In this document: positions 15,068-40,015 of the stretch, piece by piece
Layout of the letters: the number at the start of each line of letters is the position of its first letter
Position numbering within the stretch: position 1 is the first letter of the stretch
Assembly: GCA_963705295.1 (NCBI GenBank)
Contig: OY970065.1
Location: forward strand, 992,001-1,056,000
DNA length: 64,000 bases
Direction: 5' to 3'
DNA from: Parachlamydiales bacterium
GTDB lineage: Bacteria; Chlamydiota; Chlamydiia; Chlamydiales; Rhabdochlamydiaceae
Translations under genes and position numbers: made by a program
Notes under the pieces: model-generated
Databases searched by the model: none
Told to the model about the DNA's origin: nothing
What the model saw: the letters and a program-made list of their open reading frames with translations, nothing else

Positions 15068-15229
15068 TATTAACCCGAGGGGTCAAAAGGTGACAAGATG
15101 CGCTGCGAGGTAAAGCTAGATTGATTCTCGCGAGGAATAACATTCTTGAATACGAAGGATTCCGAGCGAGAATCGATAGCCGCAAGCCGCAGCAAGCAGG
15201 TTGTCACCTTTTGACCCCTCGGGTTAATA
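15068..15229 (+). mobile_element. 162-bp palindromic MITE-like element, copy 1
   Basis: Perfect 29-bp terminal inverted repeats TATTAACCCGAGGGGTCAAAAGGTGACAA (15068-15096 / 15201-15229); internal 104 bp nearly identical to copies 2 and 3. Confidence 0.88.
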
Positions 15230-15232
15230 TCT

Positions 15233-15775
15233 TTATGAGCTTGTTTTTTTTGATTTTAAAAGATCTTTAAAAATCAGGAATTTATTTTTTTGACCTTCGC
15301 GCAAAGACCATGTCTCGACTTCTTTTAGATGAATATTGTGCTCAAGACAGATATTAACGGCTTGCTCGAGTCCTTCCTTATCGTCCCAATGATAAAAACT
15401 GGCTAATCGATCTTTGACACTATCCACAGGTCGTAACAATTGAATCGTACCAAGTGGTGTGATGACTTCATTGAATTTTTTGATAGTCTCCATTCCGATG
15501 GAAACGGGTGGTGTCACAAATTCAATGATCCAAGGACAGGTCTTATGTTTAAAATATCCCTGTTTTCCGATAAATCCTAATTCAGTTAGTGCTTTTTGGA
15601 CTTGTTTCATGTCTTCAAAAGTCACATAGTCTAAATCATAAGATTGATACCGATTGTTCGAGTATATGGTTGCGCAAGCTCCGCCTACCAACACTGTCTC
15701 TATACCTCGTTTTCGGAGTTCCTGTGCAAGAAAACCAGCAAGGTCTTTTAGGGATACCGTTGATAAATCAACCAT
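15233..15775 (-). CDS. Nucleotidyltransferase-like protein (AbiEii/DUF6036-like), putative toxin
   Basis: VLVGGACATIYS...YQSYDLDYV gives the GG...D.D Pol-beta nucleotidyltransferase signature; overlaps the upstream wHTH gene by 8 nt. Confidence 0.7.
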   Translation of the reverse strand: MVDLSTVSLKDLAGFLAQELRKRGIETVLVGGACATIYSNNRYQSYDLDYVTFEDMKQVQKALTELGFIGKQGYFKHKTCPWIIEFVTPPVSIGMETIKKFNEVITPLGTIQLLRPVDSVKDRLASFYHWDDKEGLEQAVNICLEHNIHLKEVETWSLREGQKNKFLIFKDLLKSKKTSS

Positions 15776-16121
15776 TCACGACACGCAGGAGGGGTTTGTC
15801 TTTTCTACGAGGCCTTTTTCTTAAGATAGGTTCATAATAACGGGTGCGAATATTTTCTGGGAAAGAAGCATAGGCTTTGCGGAGGAAGGCTTTTAACTCT
15901 GAAAGAAAAGGGTAGCGAGGGTTAAATTGGTAAATGAGTGTTTTTCCTACTTTAGAGCTGACGACGATACCACCTTTTTCCAACCTCCCAAGGGCTCTTT
16001 GGAAACTATAGAGTGGCATATTAAAGGTCTTTTTCAATTGAGAGGGGTAACATTTTTGGTTGATCAGGATATAAAATACGACTTTCTCGATTACAGGATT
16101 GCCAAAAAGTTGCTCAAGCAT
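15768..16121 (-). CDS. Winged helix-turn-helix protein, putative antitoxin/regulator
   Basis: MLEQLFGN...YPSQL...FQRALGRLEKGGIVVSSKVGKTLIYQFNPRYPFLSELK pattern; basic C-terminal tail. Confidence 0.75.
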   Translation of the reverse strand: MLEQLFGNPVIEKVVFYILINQKCYPSQLKKTFNMPLYSFQRALGRLEKGGIVVSSKVGKTLIYQFNPRYPFLSELKAFLRKAYASFPENIRTRYYEPILRKRPRRKDKPLLRVVNG

Positions 16122-16126
16122 AATCT

Positions 16127-16172
16127 ACCAATCTTTTTAGTCATATTACCAAATTATTTGGTGGATTGTCAA
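16127..16172 (-). promoter_or_regulatory. Promoter with twin palindromic operator upstream of wHTH-nucleotidyltransferase pair
   Basis: - strand TTGACA-18 nt-TAATAT; palindrome ACCAAA-N3-TTTGGT (16148-16162) in the spacer and degenerate ACCAAT-N3-TTTAGT (16127-16141) 21 bp away. Confidence 0.6.
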
Positions 16173-16178
16173 ATACCG

Positions 16179-16565
16179 TTATTTCTTTTTTTTGAATTTG
16201 AGGGCGATCGAGTTGAGGCAGTACCGTTTGAGGGACGGTTTGGGGCCGTCGTTGAAGAGGTGGCCGAGGTGGCTTTGACACTGGCTGCAGAGGACTTCGG
16301 TCCGTTTGGTGAAAAAGCCGACGTCGTCTTTGTAGGTGACGCTGTCGGGCGTGATGGGCTCGGTGAAGCTGGGCCAGCCTGTGCCCGATTTGAACTTGGT
16401 ATCGGAGCTGAAGAGGGGTTGTCCGCAGGCGGCGCAGACGTAGGTCCCTTCTTCGGTTGAATCCCAGTATTCTCCGGAGAAAGCTTTTTCGGTTCCTTTT
16501 TCTCGGAGGACTTTGTATTGCTCAGGGGTGAGTTTCTTTTTCCAATCTTTTTCAGATTTGCCCAT
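16179..16565 (-). CDS. msrB: Peptide methionine (R)-sulfoxide reductase
   Basis: DWKKKLTPEQYKVLREKGTE, YVCAACG.PLF, SGTGWPSF, RTEV.C..C.SHLGHLFNDGP...RYCLNS; family-like start MGKSEK at 16565. Confidence 0.95.
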   Translation of the reverse strand: MGKSEKDWKKKLTPEQYKVLREKGTEKAFSGEYWDSTEEGTYVCAACGQPLFSSDTKFKSGTGWPSFTEPITPDSVTYKDDVGFFTKRTEVLCSQCQSHLGHLFNDGPKPSLKRYCLNSIALKFKKKK

Positions 16566-16567
16566 AT

Positions 16568-37934: not shown

Positions 37935-38612
37935 TTTAGTAAGAGCCTCTTTAAGATCTTTGTTTTCTGATTTGTCGAGAGCGCCCGAATTTTTGAGCCA
38001 CTGGAAATAATCGGGCGGGACTTCGGAGAGAAGACGGCCTTGGTATTTTCCAAACGGCATCCGATTGACGTTTGTCGGTTCTGAGAGAAGTTCAAACACG
38101 GTTTGTATCGGAAGATCGTCAATCATCGCAGAAAAGATCCGGTAGAGGATCATGACATCATCCAGCGCACGGTGTGCTTGATTGGCTTCAAATCCGTAGA
38201 TTTCACGGAGAGATTGGAGGGCGTGACTTGGAAGATCACACCGGTATTTGCGCGACCATTTTAGGGTATCGAGATATTTCCAAGACGGGAGCGTCAGTTT
38301 TGCACGGGCATATTCGTTTTCCAAAAACAGCTTGTCGAATCTCTCATTATTGTGAGCAATTAAGATTGCGTCTTGTCCACAAAATTCGATGAACGCAGGG
38401 CCGACCGTTTCAAAGCCCGGCGCATCCGCGACCATTTCCTGAGTAATGGTTGTAATGGCCGTGACTTCTGGCGGAATTAAACATCCCGGATTAACAAACT
38501 GAACATAACTTTCATTCCGATCCGGATCATAGGCTGCGATTTCGATGATCCGATCTCTATCCGGTTTTGTTCCCGTGGTTTCCGTATCGTAATAAATAAT
38601 TCTTTCTGCCAT
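37920..38612 (-). CDS. dnaQ: DEDDh 3'-5' exonuclease (DnaQ-like) with C-terminal MPFGKY domain
   Basis: YYDTETTG, AHNNERFD, AHRALDD, MPFGKYQG..LSEVP.DY. Confidence 0.82.
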   Translation of the reverse strand: MAERIIYYDTETTGTKPDRDRIIEIAAYDPDRNESYVQFVNPGCLIPPEVTAITTITQEMVADAPGFETVGPAFIEFCGQDAILIAHNNERFDKLFLENEYARAKLTLPSWKYLDTLKWSRKYRCDLPSHALQSLREIYGFEANQAHRALDDVMILYRIFSAMIDDLPIQTVFELLSEPTNVNRMPFGKYQGRLLSEVPPDYFQWLKNSGALDKSENKDLKEALTKLQVS

Positions 38613-38633
38613 ACTCCCTATCATCACAACAAT

Positions 38634-39254
38634 ATGATAATCTTCCAACTCATATTTTTTCTTTTTACAACCTTCGGATCACAGGCGCATGCCGCAGCTG
38701 CGACACCGCTAACCATTGTCTATTTTTCCCCTGATGATCAACTCGAAAAAAGATTGATTGATTTGATTGAAAAAGAAAAGAAAAGCGTCCTGGTCTGTAT
38801 TTATACTTTTACCCACCGCGGTGTCGCTGCTGCTTTGATCGATGCCAAGAAAAGAAAAGTCGAAGTGGAGGTTGTCGTCGATCGATTTTCCGCCAAAATT
38901 CAATCACCGCTGCAAAAGCTTTCCGAAGCAGGTATTCCTATCTTCGTCTGGGATCCTGATCCGCTGAAGCGAAAAAAAGCCCACCGCCCTCTCATGCACA
39001 ATAAATTTTGTGTCTTCGGCACCGAAAAAGTGTGGACCGGCTCGTATAATTTCACCTACGAAGGGTCTCGTATCCACCAAGAAAATGCCCTGGTCCTCAC
39101 CGATCCCGCCCTGGCCACCTCTTACCGCGCCCAATTCCAACGGATCAAACTCCGCTCGTGCATCCCCTTCGCCTCCTATGTTGCAGCCAACCCCAAGAAA
39201 AAGCGGATCATTTCCCGCGCCCCCAAAAGAAATTACGCCCCTTCAACCCATTGA
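38634..39254 (+). CDS. Phospholipase D / Nuc-like single-domain protein, exported
   Basis: Signal peptide; YFSP, IYTFT, MHNKFCVFG...WTGSYNFT...ENAL. Confidence 0.85.
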   Translation: MIIFQLIFFLFTTFGSQAHAAAATPLTIVYFSPDDQLEKRLIDLIEKEKKSVLVCIYTFTHRGVAAALIDAKKRKVEVEVVVDRFSAKIQSPLQKLSEAGIPIFVWDPDPLKRKKAHRPLMHNKFCVFGTEKVWTGSYNFTYEGSRIHQENALVLTDPALATSYRAQFQRIKLRSCIPFASYVAANPKKKRIISRAPKRNYAPSTH

Positions 39255-39637
39255 TCAATTTTCCAATCGAAAAAGATCGTTCTCCGTGAAAGAACTTCTC
39301 TATAGGCTTCTTTATCAAAGTTATCGTCTGAAAATTTGATATATCGAATCGGATTGTCAGCAACAGTTTGGAGATTTTCAGACACTTGATAATGATTATA
39401 CGACCAATAAAAGATAAACGAGTTGATGAATAAAACCCCAAAACCTCGATATAAACTTCCACTCGAAATAGCTCGGATTCCGATGTATTCCACGACAACC
39501 ACAGAAATCAAACCAGCGACACTATACATGTGCATCGTATCTGCCCGATCGCGGATAAGTTTTTTTAATTTTTGATAATCTCTATTTTCCGATAAGGCCC
39601 AATTAGCTACCGATTTAAACATACCTGGTATTCCCAT
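39233..39637 (-). CDS. Hypothetical membrane protein
   Basis: GGAGG SD before ATG at 39637; two hydrophobic segments. Confidence 0.6.
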   Translation of the reverse strand: MGIPGMFKSVANWALSENRDYQKLKKLIRDRADTMHMYSVAGLISVVVVEYIGIRAISSGSLYRGFGVLFINSFIFYWSYNHYQVSENLQTVADNPIRYIKFSDDNFDKEAYREVLSRRTIFFDWKIDQWVEGA

Positions 39638-39761
39638 GCATATCCCTCCATTTTGACAAAGAAATTTTCCCATGGACAGCCCATTTTTATATAGGAAATT
39701 TTTTTTGGATAAGTTCATAGTTCGACGTGTTCTTGGATGCCGTCTTATTCTGAAAAAATTT

Positions 39762-39824
39762 ATCGTTCTTATCGTTATATCGTTCACACTGCAACGATGA
39801 AAACGATATAACGAAAAGAACGAT
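39762..39824. repeat. 23-bp inverted repeat built from ATCGTT/AACGAT units
   Basis: ATCGTTCTTATCGTTATATCGTT (39762-39784) versus AACGATATAACGAAAAGAACGAT (39802-39824), 22/23 complementary, 17-nt loop. Confidence 0.85.
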
Positions 39825-39853
39825 GGAACAAGACAAGAGATTGCCCCTGTTAA

Positions 39854-40015
39854 TATTAACCCGAGAGGTCAAAAGGTGACAACCTGCTTGCTGCGGCTTC
39901 GCCATATCGATTCTCGCTCGGAATCCTTCGTATTCAAGAATGTTATTCCTCGCGAGAATCAATCTGGCTTTGCCTCGCAGCGCATCTTGTCACCTTTTGA
40001 CCTCTCGGGTTAATA
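39854..40015 (-). mobile_element. 162-bp palindromic MITE-like element, copy 3
   Basis: Perfect 29-bp TIRs TATTAACCCGAGAGGTCAAAAGGTGACAA (39854-39882 / 39987-40015); interior identical to copy 2. Confidence 0.88.

Follow-up and report, generated by a model that had tools for sequence, protein, structure and literature searches.

The 64,000-nucleotide window analysed here comes from the single contig (C1) of a Rhabdochlamydiaceae genome (G000; 2.13 Mb, 94.7% complete). It carries three copies of a 162-bp palindromic element that is likely a non-autonomous member of the IS630 family, that is, a transposable element of the miniature inverted-repeat type (MITE) that appears ordinary in its ends and its target. 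What seems to set it apart, judging from sequence comparisons, is a conserved, folded core, which is combined with unrelated ends. Other genomes and individual loci are cited below by G and L numbers, respectively (loci L331, L341 and L343, for example, are from metagenomes).

An earlier note on this DNA had described the three copies, each bounded by TATTAAC...GTTAATA, and reanalysis bears out that description. The terminal 29 bp pair at 29/29 positions in copy 1, 27/29 in copy 2 and 29/29 in copy 3, the 104-bp interior is identical in copies 2 and 3, and the left end of the rewritten copy-2 stem differs from that of copy 3 at 8 of 29 positions. Copy 1 is inverted relative to the other two, and its interior differs from theirs at seven positions. 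Folding z-scores are about −14 on both strands, with none of 200 shuffled sequences folding as well. No Rfam family matches the element at its gathering score, the sole Rfam match in the window being a tRNA.

The first clue to the parent came from elements in G240 that have the same interior but different ends, which match the terminal inverted repeats (TIRs) of IS630 insertion sequences (ISs) in L312 and L313. A scan of metagenomes for the TATTAAC end without the core then yielded 58 loci, including three complete 1123-bp elements (L331, L341 and L343) that have TATTAAC...GTGAC ends and encode a 345-aa protein. This protein is identified as an IS630 transposase by NF033545 (210 bits, the cut-off being 100) and has DDE_3 and HTH domains. 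Of 401 Chlamydiota genomes, 9 have homologues, and homologues with more than about 69% identity are accompanied by the TATTAAC end type, which was seen in G281, G217, G251, G394 and G008. TIR positions 1-7, 18-19 and 25-27 are near-invariant in the element and fixed likewise in the parent IS ends, and positions 8-17 vary among the ends of both. As in other IS630 MITEs, the ends are shared with an IS over 27-29 bp (the nearest IS end is 3/29 off the commonest arm), and the element is short, transposase-free, multicopy and dispersed. The search for an IS with matching ends, proposed in the earlier note, was therefore successful in metagenomes and other Chlamydiota, where the 1123-bp IS630 was found, but not in G000. 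The note had also proposed that structure matters more than TIR sequence. That view fails for the ends, since the terminal stem is an IS630 TIR and the end variants parallel different IS630 ends, so that the note's own caveat, that subfamilies might simply mirror different parent IS ends, largely applies; it survives only for the internal core.

Additional evidence for an IS630-type element came from the insertion site. The base before the left TA is T in 49/61 copies and the base after the right TA is A in 40/61, against a background of 36%; the corresponding counts for copies from other genomes are 45/60 and 31/60. Where paralogous protein repeats can be aligned, they are consistent with a net insertion of the element length minus 2 (e.g., for the in-frame copy at G000 1283334), and two copies in G014 overlap by exactly 2 bp. 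On this evidence, in which the duplication is read from a paralogue alignment and a tandem overlap rather than from an orthologous empty site, the element duplicates TA, with T-TA-A preferred. The earlier note had left the choice between TA and TTAA to be checked; TTAA was rejected, since both the net insertion length and the symmetric tip variants TACTAAC/GTTAGTA and TAATAAC/GTTATTA indicate TA. The note's judgement that the element is mobile appears to be right.

Several observations weigh against classification as an IS630 MITE. The MITE ends and the sampled IS ends include no identical pair, the nearest differing at 3-10 of 29 positions. The cognate transposase is absent from G000, where neither DDE_3 nor, by tblastn, the parent transposase finds a match; loss of the parent is common among MITEs. 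G281 and G008 hold the parent IS yet score negative for the element, and the presence of DDE_3 does not track it (15/48 genomes with the element vs 24/52 without). The core is absent from the IS interior, with the family hidden Markov model (HMM) matching only the termini in the three parent copies, so the usual origin of a MITE by internal deletion from its parent is not shown. The relatives are about 73% identical, and no alignment with an orthologous empty site reached base level; copy 3 was not seen in the syntenic interval of these same-genus relatives. Finally, mobility itself was not observed, and an IS630 transposase acting in trans is the presumed agent. Searches of G000 for another mobiliser gave no autonomous copy among inverted pairs up to 8 kb apart or among tip remnants, no match to PDDEXK_2 or Transposase_31, and no element copy near any of its three tyrosine recombinases. 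The only recurrent neighbours of copies in other genomes are AAA ATPase genes, and the non-syntenic genes common to G000 and G240 include no evident mobiliser.

The element is patchily distributed, and G000 represents an unusual expansion. An arm-profile census of G000 found 74 full pairings. It also found 14 single arms, but two of these are internal duplications of full copies and not separate loci, giving about 86 loci, besides short tip remnants. A covariance model built from 40 copies matches 48 of 100 genomes of the same chlamydial family, a count that includes other end types, and a strict pattern matches only 4 of 220 further genomes from across the order, which belong to three families. 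When GTDB was scanned with a pattern, at least 90 loci were found; among the matches listed, most titled records are Chlamydiota, several of them Rhabdochlamydiaceae, and the others include some bins titled Verrucomicrobia or bacterium and one Acidobacteriota. Searches of viral contigs gave only 2, 20 and 7 single matches, with no element and no end pair, and a plasmid search gave no match to the element. The earlier note knew of no described chlamydial family like this one, and neither the family nor a core common to several end types was found in the literature searched, which included few subscription papers; a MITE survey across 183,232 genomes (PMC11602168) may list it.

Comparison of 40 G000 copies showed one near-identical 104-bp interior combined with about a dozen end variants, the left and right ends of each being inherited together; a second interior is also found within the commonest of these variants. 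Several asymmetric end types occur in G000 alongside symmetric daughters, formed by copying of either arm onto the other; one copy carries the same arm type on both sides, and G240 shows the same asymmetric/symmetric pattern. Complementarity is perfect over positions 8-16 in 74 of 138 elements, and the two ends of one IS often differ there. These data suggest that most of what looked “compensatory” in the terminal stem consists of entire end variants, present on both arms and made symmetric by arm-to-arm copying. The fold with two-sided changes reported in the earlier note is nonetheless real: such changes occur in 24 of 49 pairs, a count reached by none of 500 shuffles. The covariation is genuine, but in the terminal stem it is not evidence of selection on RNA. 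The GCTA/TAGC versus GCCA/TGGC exchange, which the note read as covariation, holds up only in part. The right half of the change is a 5-nt variant also found in three other full copies that keep the left GCCA, so copy 1 has one private restoring change, and there is no family-wide covarying pair. A general caution is that stem covariation in repeats can stem from arm copying rather than from selection on RNA.

The core also occurs within unrelated ends. It spans about 90 nt between GCGAG and CGCAGC and itself covaries, and a core-only HMM recognises it, at 21-49 bits, in 26 of 28 loci whose ends are of other types. Five end types were confirmed around it (TATTAAC, TATAC, G309, G313/G284 and G022 types), the end classes sharing only 7-13 of 26 bases. 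Two of the five were traced to IS630 parents; parents of the three that are neither TATTAAC nor TATAC were not found in the loci examined. The TATAC-type element with the core also occurs once in G000 (C1:1253548-1253727). The G309 type probably uses another IS family, since its tips are not TA and its duplication is 6 bp long (5-6 of 6 bases in 4/4 copies measured). L435 and L440, covariance-model matches with other ends and no core-only HMM match, were left out of the count. No stand-alone core was found in G000 or G240: among the 159 rows of this test, seven were contig-end artefacts and the other nine flagged rows kept at least one arm.

The core is also polar. Mismatches of the outer stem on the copy-3 strand are A.C in 81 cases vs G.T in 33 (113 distinct arm pairs, which are not independent), placing G.T on the copy-1 strand; the earlier remark that G-T wobbles favour that strand therefore holds family-wide. 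The copy-1 strand folds better as RNA in 123 of 135 elements and as DNA in 130 of 135. Of 30 distinct triloop side hairpins on the folded strand, 17 have GNA or ANA loops, a count made without a control. GNA triloops are a signature of DNA mini-hairpins, stabilising DNA rather than RNA.

Three variants were noted in passing. A TATAC-ended element at G000 C1:924043-924240, in frame at the start of a reductase gene, has the apical part of the core and represents yet another end type. Minimal 91-93-bp versions in L024, L037, L342 and L347 lack the inner hairpin, which was deleted between two copies of a 9-bp motif. A 55-bp element with G309-type ends and no core lies at position 3513 of L236 (G240; minus strand).

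Copies survive mostly beside stop codons and rarely in frame inside genes. In G000, 35 of the 74 full copies lie within −30 to +10 of a stop codon, compared with 31% of available sites (p=0.004, based on our own crude gene calls), and only 3/74 are in frame, each a 161-bp copy that adds 53 residues. There is no orientation bias relative to transcription in co-oriented contexts (23 vs 20), and the orientation relative to replication, 44:28, was taken as not significant. Copies create false open reading frames (ORFs) and N- or C-terminal extensions in chlamydial annotations; in the window, copy 2 is open in frame into msrB, and gene callers extend the msrB ORF into it.

The usual view of a bacterial MITE is that of a remnant left by deletion from one IS. 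Since one structured core occurs in five unrelated end types, the ends look exchangeable here. The MITE is probably built of two modules, IS630-lineage ends and a folded core. A passing IS630 element, now absent, would have supplied transposase in trans. Recombination at the conserved TIR motifs, with the ends of an IS or a MITE, would bring in new end variants, and a captured end would then be copied arm to arm, such that a single event gives a fully “compensated” stem. Nesting with IS elements is a likely route to end capture. The core would be older than any one set of ends and retained for its folding on one defined strand; our favoured guess at its role is that the rod eases end capture and arm copying, allowing the core to pass between transposase lineages. 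Carried further, a less probable reading would make the folded core the real replicator, capturing the ends of passing ISs, copying them onto both arms and outliving each transposase. The ISs so captured would belong to several lineages of IS630 and to at least one further family, which makes a 6-bp duplication. Exchangeable ends, if they hold, would explain how gene-less hairpins persist after transposase loss. The element also offers a concrete transposase-element pair for the question of how such repeats move, which a 2007 review left open (PMC2229807).

Two instances of nesting were observed: in L190:12647-13970 (G240) an element and an IS630 copy adjoin, with one TA common to both, and in L170:205-375 a related element directly follows the stop codon of an IS200-type transposase.

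The core might instead be kept for an RNA-level effect on host transcripts, such as processing or termination at gene 3′ ends, with the IS630 ends serving only for delivery. The excess of copies near stop codons, the G.T wobbles and the better RNA folding of one strand are consistent with this idea, and there is precedent in the RNase effects reported for ERIC and Correia elements (PMC10969869, PMC2229807). We consider it rather doubtful, given the lack of orientation bias to transcription, the preponderance of triloops that resemble a DNA motif, and the patchy copy number. A similar degree of doubt attaches to the proposal that the core has no function of its own and is inherited baggage, its pairing kept neutrally by arm-to-arm conversion during end replacement. 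Such conversion is directly visible in G000, and it makes two-sided changes without selection, such that covariation counts overstate selection. Conversion would, however, erase asymmetric loops, which persist across genera and five end types; the same arm type occupies both sides in only 2 of the 74 full G000 copies, and two-sided changes are found in the 2-3-bp helices between loops.

Much less probable is a REPIN-like mechanism in which a dedicated enzyme other than a DDE transposase (HUH/RAYT or a GxxExxY nuclease) moves the element as a folded single strand of DNA, its place within IS ends being secondary. The polar fold with DNA-type triloops would suit such a mechanism, and compensatory changes are known from REPINs too (PMC3116915). 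The element and GxxExxY genes tend to occur together (29/48 genomes vs 12/52, p=2e-4, although kin are not independent), and three of these genes lie 0.2-1.3 kb from a copy; those of G000 are, however, flanked by other repeat families. Y1_Tnp does not co-occur with the element (15/48 vs 17/52), and G000 has only a broken remnant. The absence of a stand-alone core and the orientation to replication lend this mechanism no support, and insertion is already explained by IS630 ends and TA duplication.

The IS630 MITE has parallels in described repeat families. Like RUP of Streptococcus pneumoniae, whose IS630 counterpart is IS630-Spn1, it has TA at both ends and an IS630-shared TIR, is non-coding and is mostly intergenic (PMC2229807). 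Unlike RUP and IS630 MITEs generally, it has many end variants per core, a covarying polar rod, and a core that also occurs with non-TA ends. It resembles Rickettsia palindromic elements in size and placement, in that palindromes of about 150 bp survive in frame inside genes (three copies in G000); unlike in Rickettsia, such copies are few and a parent IS can be pointed to. Hairpins that are mobile and show compensatory changes have already been described in the REPINs of Pseudomonas and bcr1 of Bacillus cereus (PMC3116915, PMC3184786). In contrast to REPINs, the element has DDE-type TIRs and a TA duplication, with no RAYT association; a related element lies beside only 1 of 30 Y1 HUH loci.

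A suggestive parallel is with ERIC, IRU and RU-1 of enterobacteria, which are likewise TA-bounded rods with internal loops. In ERIC, loop motifs resembling GCGAG on the left and CGCAGC on the right lie at nearly the same distance from the tips, with p=0.0004-0.13 per copy in seven E. coli ERIC copies, which are related to one another. With the family model, E. coli ERIC copies rank 1, 2, 5, 8 and 10, but with E-values of only 0.02-0.7. ERIC differs in being 127 bp long with TATAC tips, and no sequence-HMM match was found between ERIC and the element in either direction, or with the core-only HMM. The link is therefore best treated as a lead rather than as membership. Were the core a replicator, its class might include ERIC as an enterobacterial representative, and IS630-type transposases would then be indicated as its long-missing mobiliser. 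A comparison of ERIC ends with G240 IS630 ends (17 and 14 of 26 bases, against 15 and 15 for swapped pairings) was not counted as evidence.

Table 1. Features of the element and its surroundings (window positions, unless C1 of G000 is named; + is the better-folding strand for copy 1)
Feature	Position	Strand	Remark
Copy 1, full element including both TA	15068..15229	+	
Copy 1 left end, duplicated TA and IS630-type TIR	15068..15096	+	matches IS630 ends of L331, L341, L343, L377 and L402
Copy 1 right end, TIR and TA	15201..15229	-	exact complement of copy 1 left end
Core of copy 1, conserved and polar (GCGAG ... CGCAGC; internal loops rich in purines)	15105..15193	+	bounds approximate; common to elements with unrelated ends
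Copy 2, copy-3 interior in a different end variant	16568..16729	-	ends 2 nt before the probable native msrB start codon
Copy 3, commonest end variant	39854..40015	-	from end-variant comparison in G000
180-aa ORF, stop 3 nt from copy 1	15233..15775	-	no Pfam or NCBIfam match
msrB (SelR domain)	16179..16565	-	domain match
Unrelated hairpin repeat abutting copy 3	39756..39853		further copies elsewhere in G000
Other hairpin families, examples	G000 C1 80124-80212, 107033-107157, 1089642-1089750, 1083670-1083819		

The interval between copies 1 and 2 (15233-16121, minus strand) holds a pair of genes of 180 and 117 aa with no Pfam or NCBIfam match. Judged by eye, the 180-aa product resembles a nucleotidyltransferase, and the pair looks like a nucleotidyltransferase with a winged-helix partner. 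Elsewhere in G000, a plain listing of neighbours shows many copies adjoining AAA ATPase, Fic, toxin-antitoxin-like and F-box-like genes. Contig C1 has at least four other hairpin repeat families, with about 14, 13, 3 and 3 copies, and each of the three GxxExxY genes is flanked by members of the two largest, an arrangement resembling that of REP and RAYT. TATA-ended and CTAG-ended palindromes of 170-345 bp, some with nested repeats, lie at C1:763259-763543, 1245639-1245983, 1649250-1649544 and 1094672-1094844. Two related fragments at C1:813726-813995 and 1073877-1074139, one of them directly after a half copy of the element, resemble group II intron domains.

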